DNA of 64,000 bases from Escherichia phage vB_EcoS_FFH_1. The notes beneath the pieces were generated by a model. That model was not told the origin of the DNA. It did no database searches and saw only the letters and a list, made by a program, of their open reading frames with translations. The stretch lies in the sequence record KJ190157. The stretch is one strand, 5' to 3'. Shown here piece after piece: positions 1 to 56,053 of the stretch. The translations under genes and the position numbers were made by a program. Numbering within the stretch: the first letter of the stretch is position 1; every line of letters begins with the position of its first letter.

Positions 1-322
1 TAACTGCTTTCTCGTAATCTTTCATGGCCATGCCATTACGAGGGAACAATTCTGCTCCAGCATTGAAACTCAGTGCTACTGGAACAGATTTGTGACCATA
101 ACCCTGTACATAGGTCACAAGGCGGGCTACAGAACGAGTGGCATTCTTAGCCTTCGGCTTTTGACGAATCGGAGCCGGATTATTCAGTGCTTGAGCAGCC
201 TGAGCATCAGTAGGGTGCTTGCGCAGGTGGCGTTCCAGACGAGCTTTGCGGTTAGCCTCAGTCTGCGGGAAAGTTTTAACTGTAGTAGCTGCTTGAGTTT
301 TTGCGTTTTTCTGCTTAGCCAT
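1..322 (-). CDS. hypothetical basic protein, N-terminal 107 codons only; CDS runs off the window start
   Basis: ATG at 322-320 (minus); frame stays open to position 1; translation begins MAKQKNAKTQAATTVKTF; codon usage strongly biased to ctg/cgt/gct/ccg, unlike the AT-rich neighbours. Confidence 0.45.
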   Translation of the reverse strand, partial: MAKQKNAKTQAATTVKTFPQTEANRKARLERHLRKHPTDAQAAQALNNPAPIRQKPKAKNATRSVARLVTYVQGYGHKSVPVALSFNAGAELFPRNGMAMKDYEKAV

Positions 323-4194: not shown

Positions 4195-4677
4195 TTATAA
4201 ACTATCAAGCTCCAATAGTTTAGCATCGCGCCATTCTATAGCATCCTCTAATTCTTTGAATGTTTTAGTATGTTTTACACCTTTTCTAGCAATCTGGACT
4301 TGGTAAGATCCGCTTGCTTTTTGGTGTATATTTTTAATACCTAACTTATTGTCTTTGTGCGCTCCGACATTCTTTCCATTGTTAAATCTATCAGATGCTA
4401 ATAAATTAATTGCTCTATTATCATGACGTATTCTGTTGTCATGGTCTACTTCTTTTGGAATGTATCCATGGGTGATATAGAATGCTAAGATATGTGCATA
4501 GTATTTTTTACCCCTTACTTGCATTACTATGTATCCTGAACATTTTTCTAGAGAACCTGCTTCTTTGTCAGCAAACTTAGTATTAAAGGATTTATCTTCT
4601 CTAGGTCTGTGGGTAAAGATTCCGGTTTCTGGATTATAGTCAAATAACTCAGCTATTTCTTTGTATTTTTCTTCCAT
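4195..4677 (-). CDS. free-standing HNH homing endonuclease with C-terminal AP2-like DNA-binding domain
   Basis: HNH_3-type motif VDHDNRIRHDNRAINL; C-terminal GSYQVQIARKGVKHTKTFKELEDAIEWRDAKL resembles AP2; sits between nrdA terminator and nrdB promoter. Confidence 0.75.
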   Translation of the reverse strand: MEEKYKEIAELFDYNPETGIFTHRPREDKSFNTKFADKEAGSLEKCSGYIVMQVRGKKYYAHILAFYITHGYIPKEVDHDNRIRHDNRAINLLASDRFNNGKNVGAHKDNKLGIKNIHQKASGSYQVQIARKGVKHTKTFKELEDAIEWRDAKLLELDSL

Positions 4678-7135: not shown

Positions 7136-7209
7136 ATAAAATTTTCTGATAGAAAAGGCCCGAGTATTTTCATACCCAGGCCTGTATATTACCAGTCTAG
7201 CTTTTTAGC

Positions 7210-7431
7210 TTATTCAATTACTTTAGCTCTAGCTACTTCTTTTAATAGAATATCTATAGAGGTGCTCAGCTCATTATAATTGAATGGTTTATTTGGATTT
7301 GAGGTTACAATTTTCCACGCTAGGGTTGTCTTAGGACTTTCTTCCCCTTCCTTACGTGTAATCATATTAGCAGCACTCAGTGAAGTACGATGTATTTTAG
7401 TTTTACGGCTCAGATGAACGACGTTTCCCAT
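7210..7431 (-). CDS. hypothetical protein (~73 aa), translationally coupled to phoH
   Basis: ATG one nucleotide after phoH stop (TAATATG); longer ORF-track version (to 7500) would overlap phoH by 68 nt. Confidence 0.4.
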   Translation of the reverse strand: MGNVVHLSRKTKIHRTSLSAANMITRKEGEESPKTTLAWKIVTSNPNKPFNYNELSTSIDILLKEVARAKVIE

Positions 7432-7432
7432 A

Positions 7433-8194
7433 TTACACCTTCCCCATGTCTTTAAAAATGTCATAGAATGCTTTAGACTCAACAGAACGAACGTTATCAA
7501 TCAATTCGATCATTGAGAAGGGGGCATTTTCGTATTTCTCATAGACTTCCATAAGGAGTGCTAGACCTGAGTCACCTTTAATGTCTTTCTGAGCTATATC
7601 TCCGCAGATAATTAAACGGCAGTCTTGTCCTACACGGGTTAGGAGACAAATCATTGCCTCAACGGAAATATTCTGAGCTTCATCGACAATTACATAGGAG
7701 TTGTTGAAAGTTCTGCCACGAGCATGTTCGATAGCCAAAAATTTAATTTTCTGACGTTCGACATATCCTTTATATGCATGATCGCCGATGGCCCATTTCA
7801 TACCATCAGCTATTGGCTCCAACCAAGGCTCTAGCTTTTCCGCTAGATCACCAGGAAGCATACCAAGAGACTTACCTAGAGGTTCATTAGGACGTACGAG
7901 AATCACTTGCTCAATATCTGAGTGAATGTCTACTAGTTCCTGAGCTGCAAGAACGGACGGAATAAAGGTTTTACCAGTACCTGGCTCACCGATACCCACA
8001 GTCACTGTGTTGTTCTTGATCATATTGATATATGATTTTTGCTCGCGGTTTTTACCTACTAGGGATTTAGCAACTGGGTTAGCGTAATCATTAGAAAAAT
8101 CAGCCTGAATTACGTTATTCTCATATTTGTTGCCACGCTTTCTTGAACCATTGCGGTTCTCTCTTTTTTGACGTGCTTTTCCCATAAATAACAC
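7433..8194 (-). CDS. phoH: PhoH-like ATPase
   Basis: Walker A GEPGTGKTF and Walker B VIVDEAQN; 253 aa. Confidence 0.85.
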   Translation of the reverse strand: MLFMGKARQKRENRNGSRKRGNKYENNVIQADFSNDYANPVAKSLVGKNREQKSYINMIKNNTVTVGIGEPGTGKTFIPSVLAAQELVDIHSDIEQVILVRPNEPLGKSLGMLPGDLAEKLEPWLEPIADGMKWAIGDHAYKGYVERQKIKFLAIEHARGRTFNNSYVIVDEAQNISVEAMICLLTRVGQDCRLIICGDIAQKDIKGDSGLALLMEVYEKYENAPFSMIELIDNVRSVESKAFYDIFKDMGKV

Positions 8195-16983: not shown

Positions 16984-17200
16984 AAAATGGGAAACAAGGA
17001 AGTTCCCAGTAAAAGAACGTAAAGTTCCTGTTTATGATACTTCGGAAAAGCTATGTAGGGTGGTACCGCATAGATTAGCTGGTATCCCTAACATATCCGA
17101 ATGGTTACTTAAACAACGGAAAACAAACGTGTCTCTTCGCATCGGCTTTGAGTTAGATAAAGTCTATGCTGAACTTGCTTCTTTGCTCAAGGAATCGTAA
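16958..17200 (+). CDS. hypothetical protein (80 aa)
   Basis: ORF overlapping the end of the 929-aa gene; no motif. Confidence 0.3.
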   Translation: MLEMTVKNKKWETRKFPVKERKVPVYDTSEKLCRVVPHRLAGIPNISEWLLKQRKTNVSLRIGFELDKVYAELASLLKES

Positions 17201-17208
17201 AAATTTAT

Positions 17209-17237
17209 TTGCATAGTTCAAAAAATTTCTGTATAAT
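17209..17237 (+). promoter_or_regulatory. early promoter nearly identical to T5 PN25 as remembered
   Basis: AAAATTTATTTGCAT...TTCTGTATAATAGATTCATAAATTTGAGAGAGGAGTT; -10 17232-17237. Confidence 0.7.
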
Positions 17238-17268
17238 AGATTCATAAATTTGAGAGAGGAGTTTAAAT

Positions 17269-17973
17269 ATGGCTGGTTCTCGCAGAAAGAAACATATCCA
17301 TGAAATCCCGGATGAAGTCTTTAAAAAAGTTATAGAGCATCTGGAGAACGGTGGTACTAAGAAAGCAGCATGTGAAATGCTTGGCGTATCATCCAACCCA
17401 ACTATGGAAAGGATGATAGAAGAGTGGCAAGATCGCCAAATTCAAGTTGCCGAGATGAAGAAAAAGAAACGTGGCACACTCATTGAAGGCATTGAGTTGG
17501 CCAACGTTATTGAACAGTATCTATCTGGCGATTCTTTTGAAGAGATTGCCGATCGTAATTACCGCTCTGTAGCAATGGTTAAATCTGTTCTGGAACGCTA
17601 TGGTGCTCTGCTTCGTTTGAACGATATTGTAGATCCATTGAATCCACCAATTATTCCTGATGATGCTGTAGCAGAAGAATTTGAGGTAGGTGAGCTTGTT
17701 TGGGTTCCTGGATACCAGTGTATCGGTGAAATCAAAAAAGCAATGGATACCCCTGTTGGTTGTTACCGTGTATGGCTTCTATCAGAAGGCAAACAACAGA
17801 ACGTTCATTATATGAATTATGAGTTGGCTTCTGTTAAACATCTGGAAAAGCTAGGGGTTGATGTAAAATCTCTAGGGTATAAGTGGACTCGTGAAGAAGT
17901 TATTACGTTGATTAACGAAGCTGTTAAGGCTGCCTTGAAACTTGATAAAGAAAAAGGAAAACGCCGTGAGTAG
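17269..17973 (+). CDS. helix-turn-helix protein, putative early regulator
   Basis: Downstream of near-PN25 promoter and GAGAGGAG SD; HTH-like segment TKKAACEMLGVS near N-terminus. Confidence 0.55.
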   Translation: MAGSRRKKHIHEIPDEVFKKVIEHLENGGTKKAACEMLGVSSNPTMERMIEEWQDRQIQVAEMKKKKRGTLIEGIELANVIEQYLSGDSFEEIADRNYRSVAMVKSVLERYGALLRLNDIVDPLNPPIIPDDAVAEEFEVGELVWVPGYQCIGEIKKAMDTPVGCYRVWLLSEGKQQNVHYMNYELASVKHLEKLGVDVKSLGYKWTREEVITLINEAVKAALKLDKEKGKRRE

Positions 17974-18217
17974 ACTAACTGATTTACTTAAAGATGGGGA
18001 AATAAAAACACTATATCGTAGAAGCTGGGATAACGATAATAACGGCTTAGTGTTACTAACTTTAGATGCTGACTCGGATGTAGCTACTCAGCATACCTGG
18101 GTAGCCGGTAACTATCCATATAGCGAGGTTGTTTCATTAACAGTATGCGAAGCTATTGCAGATGATTGGGAGGTTGCCAGCATCGAGGATATGCTCGCTG
18201 TTGGCCTGGTGGAGTAA
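17942..18217 (+). CDS. hypothetical protein (~83-91 aa)
   Basis: ORF; alternative GTG start at 17966 overlapping upstream stop. Confidence 0.35.
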   Translation: MIKKKENAVSRLTDLLKDGEIKTLYRRSWDNDNNGLVLLTLDADSDVATQHTWVAGNYPYSEVVSLTVCEAIADDWEVASIEDMLAVGLVE

Positions 18218-18234
18218 CTACTTAAAAATTTCAG

Positions 18235-18263
18235 TTGCTTAATCCTACAATTCTTGATATAAT
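18235..18263 (+). promoter_or_regulatory. early promoter TTGCTT-N17-TATAAT with TG extended -10
   Basis: -35 18235-18240, -10 18258-18263. Confidence 0.6.
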
Positions 18264-18320
18264 ATTCTCATAGTTTGAAAGAACTATTCTGTTTAATTCT
18301 TAATTAAGGAAATATAAAAT

Positions 18321-18731
18321 ATGACTACTCCAACTCAGTGGACTGATGAACTGTTCGAAAAAATGTCTTCCGAATACGTTGCTCGTATGGAGCAATTCCC
18401 AGAGGATGAACGTCCGGGTGTTAGCATGGAAATTGTTAGCGAAATTGCCCAGGAAAACGGTGTAACTCCGAACGGTTTTCGTATGAAGCTGACTAAAGCA
18501 GGTTTGTATATTAAGAAAGCTGCTGGTTCTACTTCTAAATCTAGCGCATCTACTGGAGAAAAAGCTTCTGGTGGTTCTCGTACCTCCAAAGCTCAAGCCC
18601 ATGCCGACCTTCGCGCAGCATTCTCTGACGCTGGCTTAGCACCAGATTTTCTGGATGATGCAATTATCGACAAACTGACCGGTAAAGCGGCTGCTCATCT
18701 GGCAGAAGCAATCCGAGCTATCACTAAGTAA
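18321..18731 (+). CDS. hypothetical protein (136 aa), probably highly expressed
   Basis: TTGCTT-N17-TATAAT promoter with TG extension upstream; E. coli-optimal codon bias; Ser/Ala/Gly-rich linker. Confidence 0.55.
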   Translation: MTTPTQWTDELFEKMSSEYVARMEQFPEDERPGVSMEIVSEIAQENGVTPNGFRMKLTKAGLYIKKAAGSTSKSSASTGEKASGGSRTSKAQAHADLRAAFSDAGLAPDFLDDAIIDKLTGKAAAHLAEAIRAITK

Positions 18732-19114: not shown

Positions 19115-19423
19115 ATGAGCGAACAGGTAAATCAAAACTATGAAGGACACGTTGATGACCAGTCCATCATACTTTGGGAGAAGGAGGGGGAACAAGTAAG
19201 ATTAACAGTATCGGAATTTCGTGGGAATCTATACATGGGTATTCGTTACTGGCTTCTTGATATTAATGATGAATGGTTTCCAACGAAATCTGGCTTCTCT
19301 TTTCCTTACACCCTAGAAACAACATCACAGCTTTTCTACGCGTTTACACAGATTCTTAGTGAATCTGAGGTTTTACATGAGGTACAGAAACGAGCTGAAG
19401 AACTCAAAGCCAAGAATGCCTAG
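19115..19423 (+). CDS. hypothetical protein (102 aa)
   Basis: ORF whose stop lies within an intrinsic terminator hairpin. Confidence 0.5.
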   Translation: MSEQVNQNYEGHVDDQSIILWEKEGEQVRLTVSEFRGNLYMGIRYWLLDINDEWFPTKSGFSFPYTLETTSQLFYAFTQILSESEVLHEVQKRAEELKAKNA

Positions 19424-19440
19424 TTCTTGGCTTTTTCTTT
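19408..19440 (+). terminator. intrinsic terminator overlapping stop codon of 19115..19423
   Basis: AGCCAAGAA / TTCTTGGCT 9-bp stem followed by TTTTCTTT. Confidence 0.6.
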
Positions 19441-20482: not shown

Positions 20483-20532
20483 TACATAACCCTTTGCTAC
20501 CCATCTACCATATCGGAATTATAAAGTGGTTA

Positions 20533-20561
20533 TTGACATTTTCGCCGCTTAGGTATATACT
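20533..20561 (+). promoter_or_regulatory. sigma70-type promoter TTGACA-N17-TATATA in inter-ligase spacer
   Basis: -35 20533-20538, -10 20556-20561. Confidence 0.45.
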
Positions 20562-20625
20562 ATTATCATTCAGTTGAGGGATAGAAAGTTATGGCGAGGG
20601 TAAGCAAAGTTAGTTAAAATTGTAG

Positions 20626-20654
20626 TTGCTAAATGCTTAAATACTTGCTATAAT
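20626..20654 (+). promoter_or_regulatory. early promoter TTGCTA-N17-TATAAT + ATTTATATAAATTGATAAGGAAG box (ligase B)
   Basis: -35 20626-20631, -10 20649-20654. Confidence 0.6.
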
Positions 20655-20684
20655 ATTTATATAAATTGATAAGGAAGAAATTTG

Positions 20685-21464
20685 ATGAAAATCGAAATTC
20701 CAACACAATGTCCCTCTTGTGGTTCTAAGCTAGATCTTGTCAACGGACAATTATTCTGTCGTAATAAGTCCAACTGTCCAGCGCAATCAAGCAAGTTAAT
20801 TGAGAACTTCTGTTCAAAAATGAAGTTAAAGGGCTTTGGCCCAAAAACTATTGAGAAGCTGGAGCTGACGAAGATTTCAGAACTATTTTACCTAACCGAA
20901 GAAGATTTGGTTAGAGTCGTGGGTAGCAAGGTTGCCGCTAAGTTAATTAGCGAATTAAATACTAAAGTTCGCGGAGACATTGACTTTGGTTCAGTTCTCG
21001 GTTCTTTAGGAATCCCTCTAATTGGAGAGGTTGCAGCAAAGAAATTATCCCAAAATTGCACTAGCTTCCACGATGTGAAGGCTGACGGCAAGGCTGGAGA
21101 AAATTACAAAGCCTGGCTAAATTCCCCACAAGGCAAGGATGTTATTGAACTACCGTGGAAATTTTCAACTGGTATTAAGGGCACTAAAGCTGACGTCATC
21201 ATTACAGATGAATTAGTTGCCCAGCCAAATGGAATCGCGGTATGTATTACCGGATCTTTGCAAGATTTTGCAAATCGAACGGATGCAACAAACTATTTAG
21301 AAGGTCTAGGGTATACGGTTAAGAAATCCGTTACTAAAGACGTCAAATACCTAATCTGTGAGGATGAATCAAAACGTTCTTCCTCATCTTATAAGAAAGC
21401 CGAAACGAATGGGATAGAAATCCTGTCGATTAAAGAACTATTGGAGAAAAATAATAATGTCTAA
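20685..21464 (+). CDS. lig: NAD-dependent DNA ligase, C-terminal subunit (Zn finger, HhH, BRCT-like)
   Basis: Four-Cys finger CPSCGSKL...CRNKSNCP, helix-hairpin-helix-like GFGPKTIEKL, BRCT-like C-terminus; own promoters in the 200-bp spacer. Confidence 0.75.
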   Translation: MKIEIPTQCPSCGSKLDLVNGQLFCRNKSNCPAQSSKLIENFCSKMKLKGFGPKTIEKLELTKISELFYLTEEDLVRVVGSKVAAKLISELNTKVRGDIDFGSVLGSLGIPLIGEVAAKKLSQNCTSFHDVKADGKAGENYKAWLNSPQGKDVIELPWKFSTGIKGTKADVIITDELVAQPNGIAVCITGSLQDFANRTDATNYLEGLGYTVKKSVTKDVKYLICEDESKRSSSSYKKAETNGIEILSIKELLEKNNNV

Positions 21465-22224
21465 ACTGAACTGGAACGTAGAAGGTGTAACCGAGTCTCT
21501 GAAAGCAAAAGCCACTGCTCTGGGTGTTGCTGTAATCTCTCAAGAACAAGTAGCTGCTATCGCTGCTGAACTGGCTGCTGAAACTGGTAAAGACGTTACA
21601 GCTCGCTCTGTTGGCTCTAAACTGCGTAAAGAAGGTTTTGAAGTACAGAAAGCTAACGAAGTACAGAAATCCCCGTGGACTCCTGAGCAGGAAGCTGAAC
21701 TGGTTGATTTCCTGAACGCTCATGCTGGTCAGTATACCTATGCTGAAATCGCTGCTGCTGTAGCTGGTGGTCAGTTCGGTGCTAAACAGGTACAGGGTAA
21801 GATCCTGAGTCTGGAAATGACCGCTTCTGTTAAACCAACTGAAAAAGCTGCTGCTGTTCGTTCCTTCACTCCTGATGAAGAAACTGATTTTGTTAATCAG
21901 GTTGTTGCTGGTGCTACTATTGAAGCTATCGCTGCTCACTTCGGTCGTAATATCAAGCAGATCCGTGGTAAAGCTCTGAGCCTGCTTCGTGAAGGTCGTA
22001 TCGCTGCTATGCCGGTACAGGAAACCTCAAGTGCTAAAACTCGTGAAGATCTGTTAGAAGGTCTGGATCTGGCTAACATGACTGTTGCTGAGATCGCTGA
22101 GAAAACTGGTAAATCTGAGCGCGGTGTTAAATCTATGCTGTCTCGTCGTGGTCTGGTTGCTAAGGACTATGATGGTGCTGCTAAGCGTGCTAAACTGGAT
22201 GCAAAAGCTGCGGCTGCTGAATAA
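21457..22224 (+). CDS. abundant repeat-containing HTH-like protein, putative DNA-binding protein
   Basis: Four ~60-aa internal repeats each ending in an HTH-like segment (e.g. TVAEIAEKTGKSERGVKSMLSRRGL); extreme codon bias; followed by strong terminator. Confidence 0.55.
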   Translation: MSKLNWNVEGVTESLKAKATALGVAVISQEQVAAIAAELAAETGKDVTARSVGSKLRKEGFEVQKANEVQKSPWTPEQEAELVDFLNAHAGQYTYAEIAAAVAGGQFGAKQVQGKILSLEMTASVKPTEKAAAVRSFTPDEETDFVNQVVAGATIEAIAAHFGRNIKQIRGKALSLLREGRIAAMPVQETSSAKTREDLLEGLDLANMTVAEIAEKTGKSERGVKSMLSRRGLVAKDYDGAAKRAKLDAKAAAAE

Positions 22225-22241
22225 TCTGGTAAATTAAACCT

Positions 22242-22276
22242 AAGGGGAGGGGGCTATGCTCCTTCCCCTTTTTGCA
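22242..22276 (+). terminator. intrinsic terminator after the HTH-repeat protein gene
   Basis: AAGGGGAGG ... CCTTCCCCTT hairpin followed by TTTTGC. Confidence 0.65.
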
Positions 22277-22306
22277 TTTAGAAGGCACGAAAGCGTGCAA
22301 AGGAGA

Positions 22307-23779
22307 ATGACCTTGTTTAACGTGCAAGCTGTAGTGTTGAAGATGCTTCTAGCTTCCGAACAGAAGCAGATAGCATTGGAAACATTCTCAAAACTGCATA
22401 AAGATCATTTTAATGACGCTTTCTCCTCAATTTACCAAGCCGTCCAGAATTATTATAAAAAATATAACACAATGCCGTCCATTGACGCACTGATGCTTGA
22501 GGCTAATAGGAACGCCCGCCTTTCTCAAGCTCTAGTCGTTTTAGCTAACACTCAAATTCCAGAAGTTAGCATGGAACAGGCACTTGAAGTCCTAGAGGCC
22601 GAGTATACACAGGATTTATTCCTGAAGCTTCTAGAAACAGACGTGCTTCAAGATTTAACAATGCTGGATCAGGGAGAAATTCTTAACCGAGTTGCCTCCC
22701 TTCACTTAAAATTAGAAGAGAAAGTAACGAATACTGGAAAAGTATTCAACGCAGATAACATGCGTATTTTCCAGAGAGAAGAAGATACCAAACTGAACTT
22801 AATCGCTCTTGGTATTTGTAATGAGTTCGACGCTCAAATTGGTTTAGCTCGCACAGAAACGTTACTGCTTGGTGGTTGGCGTGGTACTGGTAAATCCATT
22901 ATCTGTTCAAACATACAGGTTCAGCAATATTTGAATGGAGATATTGCTCCATACTTCTCAATTGAGATGAAAGAACATGAAGTATTTAGACGTAATCTAG
23001 CCATGTTAGCTGGTGTATCCGCACTAGCAATGCGTAATAATACTCTAGAAGGTGCAGCTCTGTTGAGATTAGCCAGAACTAGAGCTAGGATGTTTAACGG
23101 TGGTGAAGAGCTTTTCGATAACTTCGTTAAACAGTACACAATGGCTAAGATGAGTGATTTCTACGATATGGAGAGTAAGCTAATAGAAGGATATGAGCTA
23201 CATACTCCTATGATTATTGTTTATGATCCTGAGCTGTCTATTACAACAGTTGACGTAGAATTAAATAAATTAGTTGCTAGATATGGAGATAAAGTTACAG
23301 TAGCTTTACTGGACTATATTAACCAAACCCGACTTCCAGACTCTAAAACCATTGATATGTATGACTGGAAAGAACAGATGGTTGTTAGCTCGTCTTTCAA
23401 ATCTATCTGCCAGAAACATAACGTGGCTGGTGTAGCTCCTTACCAGATCGATCAAGATGGTAGAACACGTATGTCAAAGGGGATTCTTGATTCCGCAGAC
23501 ATGGCTGCTAATCTTAATGCTGCAAAAGCTGATAATGGTCAAGGTGCTATTATGTTTGACTTCGTTAAGACTCGTTCTTCTGATAGCGTGAAGTTTATGC
23601 CTAAGATGAACTGGGAAACTCTGCGAATGGATAATACAACTAACCTAGCAATGGAAGATATATCTCAAATGGAAGCTGAGTTCGTTATCCCTATTGAGAA
23701 GGATAAGCCGGCTCAACCTAAACGTGCTAAGAAAGACAAAACTGAAAATTCAACAGGTGAACAGGCCAGCGATATATGA
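22307..23779 (+). CDS. DnaB-like replicative DNA helicase
   Basis: Walker A GGWRGTGKS, LLDYINQ (H2-like) and downstream H3/H4-like blocks; start at ATG 22307 with AAAGGAG SD (the upstream ATG at 22256 sits in a terminator loop). Confidence 0.7.
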   Translation: MTLFNVQAVVLKMLLASEQKQIALETFSKLHKDHFNDAFSSIYQAVQNYYKKYNTMPSIDALMLEANRNARLSQALVVLANTQIPEVSMEQALEVLEAEYTQDLFLKLLETDVLQDLTMLDQGEILNRVASLHLKLEEKVTNTGKVFNADNMRIFQREEDTKLNLIALGICNEFDAQIGLARTETLLLGGWRGTGKSIICSNIQVQQYLNGDIAPYFSIEMKEHEVFRRNLAMLAGVSALAMRNNTLEGAALLRLARTRARMFNGGEELFDNFVKQYTMAKMSDFYDMESKLIEGYELHTPMIIVYDPELSITTVDVELNKLVARYGDKVTVALLDYINQTRLPDSKTIDMYDWKEQMVVSSSFKSICQKHNVAGVAPYQIDQDGRTRMSKGILDSADMAANLNAAKADNGQGAIMFDFVKTRSSDSVKFMPKMNWETLRMDNTTNLAMEDISQMEAEFVIPIEKDKPAQPKRAKKDKTENSTGEQASDI

Positions 23780-29631: not shown

Positions 29632-30405
29632 ATGGCTAAGTCTTGGGGCGAAACTACTGGCGGTTCTAACGATAAAATCGAATTCCTGAAGTTCAACAAC
29701 GGTATCACTCGTGTTCGTATCGTTTCTGGTGTTCTTCCACGTTATGTCTATTGGCTGACTAATAAAGAGGGTAGCGTAGCTCCTTTCGAATGTCTTCGTT
29801 TCAACCGTGACAAAGAGAGCTTTGTTCGTGGTAAAGCTGATCCGGTTCATGAGATGGGCTTCTTTGAGAAGGAGCTGGATAAAGATGGTAATCGGGTTCC
29901 GCTGAAACCGAAGAAAAACTATATCGCTTTTGTTATTGACCGTTCTGATAACAAACTGAAAGTAATGGAAGTCAAGGCTACTATTCTGAAAGGCATCCAG
30001 TCTATCATGAAGCAGTTGAACCTGGCAACTCCGTTTGATATTGATATTTCTATCGAGAAAAAAGGTAAAGGTTTCGATACTGAGTATGATGTACAGCAGA
30101 TTGCTGCTATGCAGTTCCAGATTAAGCTGCAAGATCCTAACAGTGCGGAATCTAAGCAATATGCTGCGGATGTAGATCTGATCGGTGAAGCTATGTGTGA
30201 TGAAGATGGCGACATCATTAAGTTCGAAAAAGTTCCTTCTCTGGAACAAACCTATCCGGTTCCTACCTATGAAGAGCAGAAAGAAGCAATTCTAGCCTTC
30301 ATGGAAGGTCGTGAGAATAAAGATGATGATGCCAAATCTGGTAATAGCAATGCAGGTTCCCAGAAAGGTATTGACTCAGAAGCTGCAAGCGATCTGGACG
30401 ACTAA
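29632..30405 (+). CDS. abundant early protein with acidic C-terminal tail, candidate ssDNA-binding protein
   Basis: Strong codon bias, AGAGGA SD, tandem upstream promoters, terminator downstream; acidic tail ...EAASDLDD. Confidence 0.45.
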   Translation: MAKSWGETTGGSNDKIEFLKFNNGITRVRIVSGVLPRYVYWLTNKEGSVAPFECLRFNRDKESFVRGKADPVHEMGFFEKELDKDGNRVPLKPKKNYIAFVIDRSDNKLKVMEVKATILKGIQSIMKQLNLATPFDIDISIEKKGKGFDTEYDVQQIAAMQFQIKLQDPNSAESKQYAADVDLIGEAMCDEDGDIIKFEKVPSLEQTYPVPTYEEQKEAILAFMEGRENKDDDAKSGNSNAGSQKGIDSEAASDLDD

Positions 30406-54676: not shown

Positions 54677-56053
54677 TTAAGATGCAGCGTAAGCACCAGA
54701 TACAACACCATTACTAAAGTAACGTTGCAGGTTAACACGCTGAGTAACATAGTATGCATCACGCTGTTTACCAGCTTGACGCTCACGTTCAACAGTAACA
54801 GCACGCTGACGTGGCATTACGAAGTTATCTTTATAAACGATAACTGCGAACTCTTTATCAGCAGCTTTAGCTGGGAAGTACTCAGAAACTACAACCGGCA
54901 GACCGTAAATACGACCAACCTGACCCTGTAGTTTAACAGCATCATTACCAACCTGGGCAACATCCTGCCATTCTTCATCTTCCAGCAGATCGTAGTAAGC
55001 ATCCATAGATACGATCAGTACTAGTTTGCTCAATTTCAGACCATGACGGCCCAGTTTACGACGCAGTTTAGAGATAGTTTTAGCAGTTACCAGTACGGAA
55101 CCATCAGCTTTAGCTTCAGTAGTAACTTTAGCACTATCTTCACTAGCCAGAGTCAACAGACCTTTCGGCTGACCCGTACCATTACCAGTCATAAACGCTT
55201 CTTCGATAGAAACAGCATGTGCTTCGATCAGACGCTTACGCAGCAGAGGCAGCAGGGAGAAGATTGCATCTTCTTCAGTTTCGTCAGTGATGAAGGACTT
55301 AGCAGCCAGCTTGTAAGTTTTGAAGCTGATTTCAGTCAGGGCACCTTTAACTTCGTCACCAACAGTTTCGTCAGTACCAAATTTGGAAGCATCTACCCAA
55401 GTAGCTTTTCCAGCTTCTGGTTCAACGAGCATAGTAAGAATTTTGCTGGACATTGGCAGTTCATCGAACAGTGCACCAACTACTAATTCTTTCTGCAGAT
55501 CACGGATAATACGGGTGGAGAAGATAGTTTCGTATGCTTCGCTAGACATAGAAACGGAAGAAGAACCATTGACAGCCTTAACGTGGGCTTTACCATGTTC
55601 AGTTTCGAATACGTCCTTCTCCATCATATAAGACAGAAGAACTAGTTTTTCAACTTCATCTTCAAAAGCTTCCTGAGTACCGTATAGTGCTTTAGCTACG
55701 CTATCACCGACGAAGGAACGTCCTTCACGAGCTGCCAGCAGAGATTTGATTTCGTCCTGAAGACCAACAATAGTTTCCTGCTGCTTTTCTACAGTCTGTG
55801 CGAACAGTTCTGCACTCTTTTTAGATTTTTCATCCAGGGACTTAACCAGTTCCAGAGCTTCTTCTAGCTTCTGACGATCTTCGCCAACTGCTTTAGAAAC
55901 CAGATCATTCATACGAGCCAGTTCTTTTTCTTCCTGCTCTTTGCGCATACGTTCAGCTTCAGCAGCTTTCTGAGCAGCGGTCAGACCTTCCAGAGATTTA
56001 GCCAGATCACCCAGACCAAGTTCTTCTTTCAGCTTATTAATATCAATAGTCAT
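54677..56053 (-). CDS. major capsid protein with N-terminal scaffolding (delta) domain (pb8-like)
   Basis: 458 aa; first ~150 aa is a charged coiled coil (KLKEELGLGDLAKSLEGLTAAQKAAEAERMRKEQEEKE...), then globular domain; follows prohead protease gene; strong terminator downstream. Confidence 0.85.
   Translation of the reverse strand: MTIDINKLKEELGLGDLAKSLEGLTAAQKAAEAERMRKEQEEKELARMNDLVSKAVGEDRQKLEEALELVKSLDEKSKKSAELFAQTVEKQQETIVGLQDEIKSLLAAREGRSFVGDSVAKALYGTQEAFEDEVEKLVLLSYMMEKDVFETEHGKAHVKAVNGSSSVSMSSEAYETIFSTRIIRDLQKELVVGALFDELPMSSKILTMLVEPEAGKATWVDASKFGTDETVGDEVKGALTEISFKTYKLAAKSFITDETEEDAIFSLLPLLRKRLIEAHAVSIEEAFMTGNGTGQPKGLLTLASEDSAKVTTEAKADGSVLVTAKTISKLRRKLGRHGLKLSKLVLIVSMDAYYDLLEDEEWQDVAQVGNDAVKLQGQVGRIYGLPVVVSEYFPAKAADKEFAVIVYKDNFVMPRQRAVTVERERQAGKQRDAYYVTQRVNLQRYFSNGVVSGAYAAS

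Follow-up and report, generated by a model that had tools for sequence, protein, structure and literature searches.

The ligB-D5 transcription unit

The window analyzed here is the whole stretch of 64,000 nucleotides taken from Escherichia phage vB_EcoS_FFH_1 (sequence record KJ190157). The D5 gene, encoding an abundant dsDNA-binding protein of 255 aa (27 kDa, pI 6.8), starts with ATG and occupies positions 21457..22224 of the plus strand, between the window ORFs 20682..21464 (ligB) and 22256..23779 (D6, DnaB-like helicase). The ligB gene for the NAD-dependent DNA ligase subunit B was placed at 20685..21464 (plus strand), its ATG at 20685 being the start annotated in T5, and its stop codon lies in an 8-nt overlap with the start of D5. 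Tandem early promoters were found by a consensus scan at 20533..20654 (plus strand), namely P-K28b (TTGACA-17-TATACT) and P-K28a (TTGCTA-17-TATAAT, extended TG). The alignment of window positions 20500-20700 with the T5 region annotated as “promoter P-K 28b”/“P-K 28a” showed that every aligned base is identical over about 200 nt. A Shine-Dalgarno-like GGAG at 21443..21446 (plus strand), read from the sequence 10 nt 5′ of the D5 ATG, is the putative ribosome-binding site of the gene.

An intrinsic terminator was located downstream of D5 at 22242..22276 (plus strand). Its G+C-rich hairpin (22242..22270) closes a 3-nt loop with a stem of 13 bp, 8 of them G-C, and is followed by a T-run (TTTTTGCATTT). 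The centroid energy was −30 kcal/mol and 0 of 200 shuffled sequences folded equally well, confirming the strong terminator that an earlier note, made from the raw sequence, had placed after this gene. A terminator is also annotated at the corresponding place in phage BB1. The tandem early sigma-70 promoters P28b/P28a would drive ligB and D5 together, with the 22242..22270 hairpin as the end of their common transcript.

Taken whole, the evidence is best explained by the gene at 21457..22224 being D5 of a T5-like phage (Tequintavirus), with a probability of roughly 0.9. The encoded protein is of equal length to T5.118 (T5 D5, YP_006946.1) and identical to it at 253 of 255 aa, the two substitutions relative to T5 being A25D and A206V. 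It matched phrog_323 “transcriptional regulator, D5-like” over residues 1-253 (E 1.9e-71), and D5 loci with 98.9% nucleotide identity to the window gene were found in 513 Tequintavirus records. The annotation “D5” is carried by hundreds of Tequintavirus records, and several records label the gene “transcription factor” or “transcriptional regulator”. No NCBIfam family was found for D5, D3 or D11. T5 D5 had been named in the earlier note as a speculative guess, which proved right on the T5.118, phrog_323 and annotation evidence. The gene order of T5 and BF23 (PC4-like, ligA, ligB, D5, D6 helicase, primase, polymerase) was matched in the window. T5 D5 and the BF23 orthologue (ORF135) have the same flanks, with ligB upstream and the D6 helicase downstream, and the P28b/P28a promoters and terminator position of the T5 locus are as in the window, whereas the window DNA lacks the homing-endonuclease genes hegI and hegJ of the T5 genome. 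The same replication-gene order is kept in the marine relative L003, whose D5 is 53% identical. The D5 gene, its DNA binding, phenotype, abundance and HTH fold are all already known.

Recorded function and fold of D5

In the literature of 1979-83, D5 is said to bind dsDNA cooperatively and non-specifically. According to the RefSeq entry for T5.118, D5 binds DNA, is needed for both the replication of DNA and late transcription, and takes part in shut-off; this entry supports the DNA binding proposed from the sequence. The title of McCorquodale et al. 1979 (J Virol 29:322), as cited in PMC12630848, likewise bears on the dsDNA binding of D5 and its role in replication, early shut-off and late transcription. 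D5 was described as “very abundant in lysates” of BF23 and T5 (PMC10644984), and it was among the top spectral counts in phiR2-01 preparations (PMC8624392).

D5 was also reported as the HTH-fold trigger of retron-Kva2, a type IX retron (bioRxiv 10.64898/2026.07.11.737809). In the same work, mass photometry showed D5 to be monomeric (26 kDa) and to remodel the retron-Kva2 complex, AlphaFold3 predicted that it binds the retron msDNA, and D5 expressed by itself was toxic. A retron escaper with a W74* stop in D5 was reported as well, which sits oddly with an essential role of the protein. D5 was also considered as the trigger of DRT4 and rejected, as the “phage-encoded DNA-binding protein” in the paper on DRT4 is T5 ORF55.

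The AlphaFold2 model of D5 contains four three-helix HTH units with a period of about 60 aa (pLDDT 92.6, pTM 0.50). These two scores fit confident modules whose mutual arrangement is loosely defined. None of the solved structures compared with the model superposes on more than about one module. The top structural match was the DNA-binding domain of GcrA (Caulobacter crescentus, PDB 5yiu), and Pfam GcrA gave no D5 match at E ≤ 1. GcrA, which binds both sigma-70 and DNA, carries a single domain of this type and a C-terminal domain that binds sigma-70. Searches of PDB-chain sequences gave nothing significant, whether the protein or a 38-sequence profile served as the query, the best hit being a designed engrailed homeodomain variant (E 0.019), and PDB Myb sequences matched D5 at E 0.57-1.7. 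The match to Pfam PF00249 Myb_DNA-binding was likewise not significant (17.6 bits against a cut-off of 24.4). D5 has the tandem three-helix fold with a recognition helix that is used to recognize Myb/SANT proteins, but, as read from the sequence, not the three evenly spaced tryptophans of a Myb repeat. Tandem Myb/SANT and bipartite HTH domains (c-Myb R1-R3, Cdc5/Cef1, Tc3/Mos1 transposase N-termini, paired domain) comprise two or three modules, whereas D5 has four, and they showed no significant sequence relationship to it (E at least 0.5).

Pfam PF08281 Sigma70_r4_2 matched residues 204-230 with 29.1 bits, above the curated cut-off of 25.7, and the match is limited to profile positions 23-49 of 54, that is, the HTH core. 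No Sigma70_r2 match was found by Pfam, and Sigma70_r3 and Sigma70_r4 stayed under their cut-offs. With its architecture of four HTH modules, D5 is not built as a sigma factor, and its likeness to sigma-70 region 4 is that of the common HTH fold only.

These comparisons bear on whether D5 is a bulk coat of DNA or a sequence-specific transcription factor or partner of RNAP/sigma-70, the modules of which would read early or late promoter sites or dock on RNAP in the manner of GcrA or sigma region 4. The above-threshold Sigma70_r4_2 match, the GcrA domain as top structural match, the “transcription factor” and “transcriptional regulator” labels of several records and the published statement that the means of the T5 early-to-late transcription switch is not known (PMC7472727) all speak for such a regulator. 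However, few specific regulators are needed in amounts like those of capsid proteins, and both the codon bias described below and lysate gels (PMC10644984) indicate very high abundance. We regard a specific regulator as rather unlikely, though a real possibility.

Module architecture of D5

All four modules of the AlphaFold2 model lie on the plus strand. R1 (21487..21630, residues 11-58) comprises helices 11-22, 29-43 and 49-58, with ARSVGSKLRK as third helix and R50, K55, L56 and R57 as invariant residues. R2 (21682..21810, residues 76-118) comprises helices 76-88, 95-101 and 109-118, with AKQVQGKILS as third helix and Q113, G114, K115 and L117 as invariant residues; its entry is Myb-like (“W-T-P-E-Q-E”). 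R3 (21871..21990, residues 139-178) comprises helices 139-150, 155-162 and 166-178, with IKQIRGKALSLLR as third helix and G171, K172 and S175 as invariant residues, and Pfam HTH_23 matched residues 151-184 of this area (E 1e-4, below the curated cut-off). R4 (22069..22149, residues 205-231) starts with a short helix (205-207), followed by helices 210-217 and 221-231, with ERGVKSMLSRR as third helix and G223, L228, R230 and R231 as invariant residues. A Lys/Ala-rich C-terminal helix (residues 240-254) follows R4.

The profile-profile comparison with hhalign showed clear sequence homology between R2 and R3 (probability 96%, E 2.5e-9). At the nucleotide level, the 12-mer GCTATCGCTGCT and its variants recur with spacings of 189 and 180 nt. 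The R1-R2, R1-R4 and R3-R4 alignments were in register but weak (E 1e-3 to 1e-4; probabilities 19-55%), and R1-R3 and R2-R4 received no support (probabilities 6% and 4%). The R2/R3 profile found R1 in 11 of the 38 homologues and did not find R4 in them. As repeat units, R1 and R4 are therefore weakly supported by sequence and are suggested mainly by the AlphaFold2 model. The four HTH-like repeats of about 60 aa proposed in the earlier note are accordingly upheld by sequence for R2 and R3, and for R1 and R4 they depend on the weak in-register alignments and the model.

Another reading of these data is that no four-fold repeat exists, and that a duplicated central pair, R2/R3, lies between two unrelated helical segments of a generic helical protein that has been over-read. 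It would account for the restriction of significance in the profile comparison to R2-R3 and for the complete escape of R4 from the R2/R3 profile. Against it, four helix-helix-turn-helix units, spaced about 60 aa apart, are seen in the model with pLDDT above 90, and the weak R1-R2, R1-R4 and R3-R4 alignments are nevertheless in register on helices 2 and 3. Moreover, the conserved motif x-[RQ]-x-[VI]-x-[GS]-K-x-L is common to all four third helices, and R4 matches a Pfam HTH family (Sigma70_r4_2) independently. On balance this alternative is unlikely, and the four units may, though need not, share a common origin.

Conservation is concentrated in the third helices: they make up 17% of the chain and hold 15 of the 23 invariant residues (P = 7e-8). 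All four are positively charged (net +2 to +4 per helix), and the whole protein is neutral (pI 6.8). An explicit description of the four modules and of the clustering of conserved residues in their recognition helices was not found in the D5 literature searched and is a modest addition to it.

Codon usage and a possible mode of action

Codon adaptation was calculated with the Sharp & Li E. coli weights; the effective number of codons (Nc), which is reference-free, and resampling against window usage are independent of this rare-codon weighting. The CAI of D5 was 0.733, the highest among the 69 window ORFs (median 0.24, mean 0.275, sd 0.106), and its two off-frame values were 0.14 and 0.22. Synonymous resampling from window usage with the amino-acid sequence held fixed gave a CAI of 0.325 ± 0.026 (maximum 0.442 in 20,000 trials; z = 15.7). 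The Nc of D5 (30.3) was the lowest among 56 genes (median 45.3). The preferred codons were CTG for 17/19 Leu, CGT for 10/12 Arg, GCT for 42/46 Ala and GGT for 18/19 Gly. The codon optimization suggested for this gene therefore held when CAI was compared across the window ORFs, and the highest CAI and lowest Nc in the window agree with the lysate (PMC10644984) and spectral-count (PMC8624392) data in bearing out the claim of an abundant protein. The proposed contrast with AT-rich neighbors is real (GC 0.47 in D5 against 0.39 in the window) but partly an amino-acid effect (18% Ala). As GC is 0.47 while GC3 is just 0.31, the composition shift of D5 reflects codon choice and Ala/Gly content and not GC3. 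No tRNA genes that could account for the codon usage were found within the window. In the marine relative, which has 33% GC, codon bias of D5 was not evident (Nc 41.5, neighbors 35-50). D5 uses E. coli high-expression codons almost exclusively, in keeping with a very high translational output, and ligB on the presumed shared transcript has ordinary codon usage (CAI 0.24).

It is very improbable that the bias stems from a recent acquisition from an enterobacterial host or is a by-product of an Ala-rich repetitive composition, as the near-E. coli GC of 0.47 (window average 0.39) and the 18% alanine with GCT runs might suggest, because z = 15.7 persists with the amino-acid sequence fixed, GC3 of 0.31 bears no host-like signature, the homologues found were D5-like and about 240-255 aa long, the long contigs (about 105-114 kb) and named records examined were all phage, with conserved replication-gene synteny and with Pectobacterium and Vibrio phages among them, the major head, SSB and D3 genes are biased likewise, and D5 abundance was seen experimentally (PMC10644984).

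The other genes flagged as sharing the codon bias correspond to D3, D11 (SSB) and a minus-strand DUF7022 gene. The bias was confirmed for 18321..18731 (CAI 0.573) and 29632..30405 (CAI 0.538). The partial gene at 1..322 was real (CAI 0.469), though not on the plus strand that the earlier note implies: the DUF7022 gene lies on the minus strand with its ATG at 322, and the plus-strand reading was rejected as it yields no plausible protein. The major head protein gene at 54677..56053 (minus strand, CAI 0.631) had been missed. The products of the biased genes for the D3 DNA-binding protein, D11 SSB and the major head protein are required in stoichiometric amounts.

D5 may be viewed as a chain of four small three-helix HTH modules joined by flexible linkers, each of which appears to present a third (recognition) helix that is highly conserved and positively charged. 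A single monomer would touch a number of consecutive grooves of the DNA with low sequence specificity, and at high copy number the protein would coat replicating phage dsDNA. Such coating would alter template accessibility, so that replication proceeds, early promoters are shut off and late transcription starts; we infer multivalent coating as the means of the early-to-late switch, and the “nucleoid” protein of the earlier note is an inference of the same kind. The proposed action is like that of phi29 p6 and bacterial nucleoid-associated proteins (high copy, low specificity, effects on replication and a transcription switch), as judged from the abundance and phenotype of D5, and the folds are unrelated. 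D5 also differs from the basic classical nucleoid proteins in being neutral overall, and from DNA-coating proteins in being monomeric in mass photometry (bioRxiv 10.64898/2026.07.11.737809). A stronger version, which we regard as improbable though conceivable, is that D5 is a dedicated phage “chromatin” protein, a neutral monomer with four GcrA/Myb-like HTH modules that coats T5 DNA at capsid-protein copy number; coating itself would then be the early-to-late switch with no promoter-specific factor, might shield the DNA from host nucleases, and would be the feature sensed by retron-type defenses.

As a discovery, the D5 gene is of little weight, being ordinary and previously described. Its recovery serves as a calibration point: codon bias and a terminator in the raw sequence sufficed to single out, among the non-structural proteins of a T5-like phage, the most abundant one, and the codon-bias signal equally marks D3, the SSB D11 and the major head protein. 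The four-module view with conserved third helices provides concrete targets for mutagenesis, which bear on the T5 early-to-late switch and on the triggering of a type IX retron by D5.

The D5 gene and its surroundings

The 820-nt region at 21457-22276 was 98.9% identical to Tequintavirus genomes and matched 513 phage records, under which the annotations read 'D5 protein', 'transcription factor D5' or 'DNA-binding protein'. The encoded protein was identical to T5.118 of phage T5 (YP_006946.1) at 253 of 255 residues and matched phrog_323, 'transcriptional regulator, D5-like', over its full length (E = 1.9e-71). The gene order D2, D3, PC4-like, ligA, ligB, D5, D6 helicase, primase, polymerase, D10 and D11 is the same in T5 and BF23, and together these results bear out the suggestion of the earlier note, made from the sequence alone, of a protein possibly such as T5 D5. 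The object is thus the well-known T5 D5 gene, and already known as such; the observation is confirmed and its interpretation supported, and what is added here is descriptive and minor, namely the explicit layout in four modules and a map of conservation.

The D5 ORF (21457..22224, plus strand) runs for 255 codons from an ATG and begins 8 nt inside the end of the preceding ORF, ligB; a GGAG motif lies 10 nt 5' of the ATG. Just 3' of the stop, a hairpin at 22242..22270 with a 13-bp stem (8 G-C pairs) and a 3-nt loop is followed by TTTTTGCATTT, indicating that 21457..22276 comprises the gene plus an intrinsic terminator. The folding energy of the 86-nt terminator segment was -32.7 kcal/mol (centroid -30.1; z-score -3.6), and 0 of 200 dinucleotide shuffles were as stable, in agreement with the strong terminator proposed at the end of the gene. 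The 200 nt 5' of ligB were identical to a T5 segment annotated with the promoters P-K28b and P-K28a, which a consensus scan placed at 20533-20561 and 20626-20654, respectively. The scan found no plus-strand promoter-like site between them and D5, so that a single transcription unit comprising ligB and D5, and stopping at the D5 terminator, appears likely. Since codon usage is ordinary in ligB (CAI 0.24) and not in D5, a difference in output between the two should arise at translation.

Several features of the neighboring genes were also observed. The start codon of the D6 helicase in BF23, ATG 22256 (T5 uses the equivalent position), falls within the hairpin loop of the D5 terminator, which would put the first D6 codons inside the stem-loop. 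In-frame alternatives downstream are GTG 22295, ATG 22307 (1 nt after AGGAG) and TTG 22313 (6 nt after AAGGAGA), and the D6 start within 22256..22315 is uncertain. The segment 19115..19434, immediately before ligA, holds the gene of the PC4-like protein (phrog 'transcriptional regulator') and a 12-bp hairpin resembling a terminator (19406..19434) that overlaps the stop codon of this gene. The counterpart of the protein in a marine relative, L003, matches Pfam PC4. An ORF of 160 aa between nrdB and nrdA (4195..4677, minus strand; GC 0.335, CAI 0.22) carries an HNH_3 endonuclease domain and is probably a mobile homing endonuclease, because BF23, unlike the window, has no gene at that site. Two T5 genes are absent from the window: hegI, which in T5 separates the origin-binding protein gene from D2, and hegJ, which separates D6 from the primase gene.

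Codon usage of D5 and other biased genes

Codon adaptation was computed over all ORFs, as the earlier note had proposed, with the E. coli weights of Sharp & Li (1987). The CAI of D5, 0.733, was the highest among the 69 window ORFs (median 0.240, mean 0.275, SD 0.106), and the remaining two frames of the same DNA gave 0.14 and 0.22. When synonymous codons were redrawn according to the combined usage of the remaining 55 genes, with the amino-acid sequence fixed, the resampled CAI was 0.325 ± 0.026 and never exceeded 0.442 in 20,000 draws (z = 15.7). Wright's Nc, which uses no reference set, was also lowest for D5 (30.3; window median 45.3). The preferred codons were CTG (17/19 Leu), CGT (10/12 Arg), GCT (42/46 Ala), GGT (18/19 Gly), ATC (9/10 Ile), CAG (10/12 Gln), GAA and AAA, compared with 16% CTG among Leu codons and 23% ATC among Ile codons in the rest of the window. 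A compositional island was ruled out by a GC3 of just 0.31, indicating that specific codons were selected.

The further biased loci that had been pointed out held up: D3 (18321..18731, plus strand; phrog 'DNA binding protein') with a CAI of 0.573, the single-strand DNA-binding protein gene D11 (29632..30405, plus strand) with 0.538, and the partial gene at 1..322 with 0.469. The last lies on the minus strand with its ATG at 322 and encodes the N-terminal 107 aa (MAKQKNAKTQ...) of a DUF7022/phrog_4516 protein of roughly 171 aa without an assigned function; it is annotated 'putative virion structural protein' in one record, and its CAI suggests high expression. The same segment read on the plus strand yields no plausible protein and was rejected. 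Absent from the earlier list was the major head protein gene (54677..56053, minus strand), second in codon optimization within the window (CAI 0.631, Nc 31.7). The T5 record carries promoters named P-N25 and P-N26, and, going by gene position, D2 and D3 in the window are located 3' of them (region 17200..18320). Both promoters rank among the strongest sigma-70 promoters known.

Four helix-turn-helix modules in D5

The AlphaFold2 model built from an alignment of 38 D5 homologues (50-81% identity) had a mean pLDDT of 92.6 and a pTM of 0.50, values consistent with modules that are individually well defined but free to vary in their placement relative to one another. DSSP assigned four helix-helix-turn-helix units to the model: R1 (residues 11-22, 29-43 and 49-58), R2 (76-88, 95-101 and 109-118), R3 (139-150, 155-162 and 166-178) and R4 (205-207, 210-217 and 221-231), followed by a terminal helix at 240-254. 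The third helices, ARSVGSKLRK, AKQVQGKILS, IKQIRGKALSLLR and ERGVKSMLSRR, carry net charges of +4, +2, +4 and +3, respectively, in a protein that is neutral as a whole (34 K+R, 34 D+E, pI 6.8). These four helices make up 44 of the 255 residues and hold 15 of the 23 invariant columns of the 38-sequence alignment (hypergeometric P = 7e-8).

Profile-profile comparison matched R2 with R3 at a probability of 96% (E = 2.5e-9). R1-R2 (E = 1.3e-3), R1-R4 (2.6e-4) and R3-R4 (1.2e-4) aligned in register on helices 2 and 3 with low probability, and R1-R3 and R2-R4 had no support. An HMM built from R2 and R3 found R1 in 11 of the 38 family members (i-E < 0.01) and R4 in none of them. R4 passed the Pfam cut-off for Sigma70_r4_2 (29.1 vs 25.7 bits), and R3 came near, but fell short of, that for HTH_23. 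In the DNA, the helix-2 motif A-I-A-A recurs as GCTATCGCTGCT, at spacings of 189 and 180 nt. The earlier description of about four repeats of ~60 aa, each ending in an HTH-like segment, is thus right as architecture, but the sequence evidence for common descent is uneven and argues for duplication of the central pair, R2-R3, only.

Distribution and proposed role of D5

Foldseek of the D5 model against the PDB returned no match better than E = 0.08, and a PDB search by sequence found no related solved chain. In a viral structure library, D5 of a Vibrio phage ranked first (TM 0.72), ahead of various phage proteins with multiple HTHs (TM ~0.2). Scanned exhaustively with HMMER, 1.84 billion cluster representatives yielded only 168 clusters at E <= 1e-3 and 50 at <= 1e-30, the full-length matches being mostly 240-255 aa. 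A word-indexed search yielded 726 clusters at 90% identity; the largest contigs measured about 105-114 kb, and the members with names belong to Pectobacterium and Vibrio phages. A 53%-identical D5 occurs on 235 contigs, including marine (Tara) samples; this relative (L003) shares the block PC4, ligA, ligB, D5, DnaB, primase and polymerase, the ligB/D5 overlap and a hairpin downstream of D5. Its D5 codon usage does not appear distinctive. L003 also encodes a 121-aa SET-domain protein (7144..7509) between the DnaB-like helicase and primase, which is unusual inside a phage replication module.

In work of 1979-83, gpD5 was reportedly purified; it had a mass of about 29 kDa, bound double-stranded DNA cooperatively and was produced in large quantity. 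The founding paper on D5 is McCorquodale et al. 1979 (J Virol 29:322). According to the T5 RefSeq record, D5 binds DNA, is needed for both replication and late transcription, and also has a part in shutting off expression. D5 was very abundant in T5 and BF23 lysates (PMC10644984), and in phiR2-01 proteomics it was among the proteins with >100 spectral counts (PMC8624392), in line with the abundant DNA-binding protein envisaged earlier. In a July 2026 preprint, T5 D5 (255 residues, 26 kDa, monomer) is named as the trigger of the type IX retron-Kva2; its HTH is proposed to bind the msDNA stem-loop, and D5 expressed by itself is toxic. The passages covered refer to 'a helix-turn-helix motif', with no account of four modules. 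The preprint also reports a viable T5 escaper with D5 W74*, together with G53D, V149I and G232D. Positions W74, G53 and G232 hardly vary among the aligned family members, and a premature stop is at odds with D5 being on record as required for replication.

The mechanism by which T5 changes transcription class is still described as not known (PMC7472727). The identity, signals and architecture of D5 come from the present analysis, and its DNA binding, phenotype and abundance from the literature. The resemblances of D5 to GcrA and sigma-r4 hint at the main alternative, a specific regulator or a partner of RNA polymerase, a role that fits the abundance less well than coating of the phage DNA does. 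Coating, though inferred, is the best-supported account: the strong early P28 promoters would drive D5, and optimal codons would raise its output until it builds up to the levels of structural proteins. Each monomer, with four basic recognition helices on flexible linkers, may then bind duplex DNA over several helical turns with low specificity. Such coverage of the phage DNA would support replication and remodel promoter access, leading to early shut-off and late turn-on.
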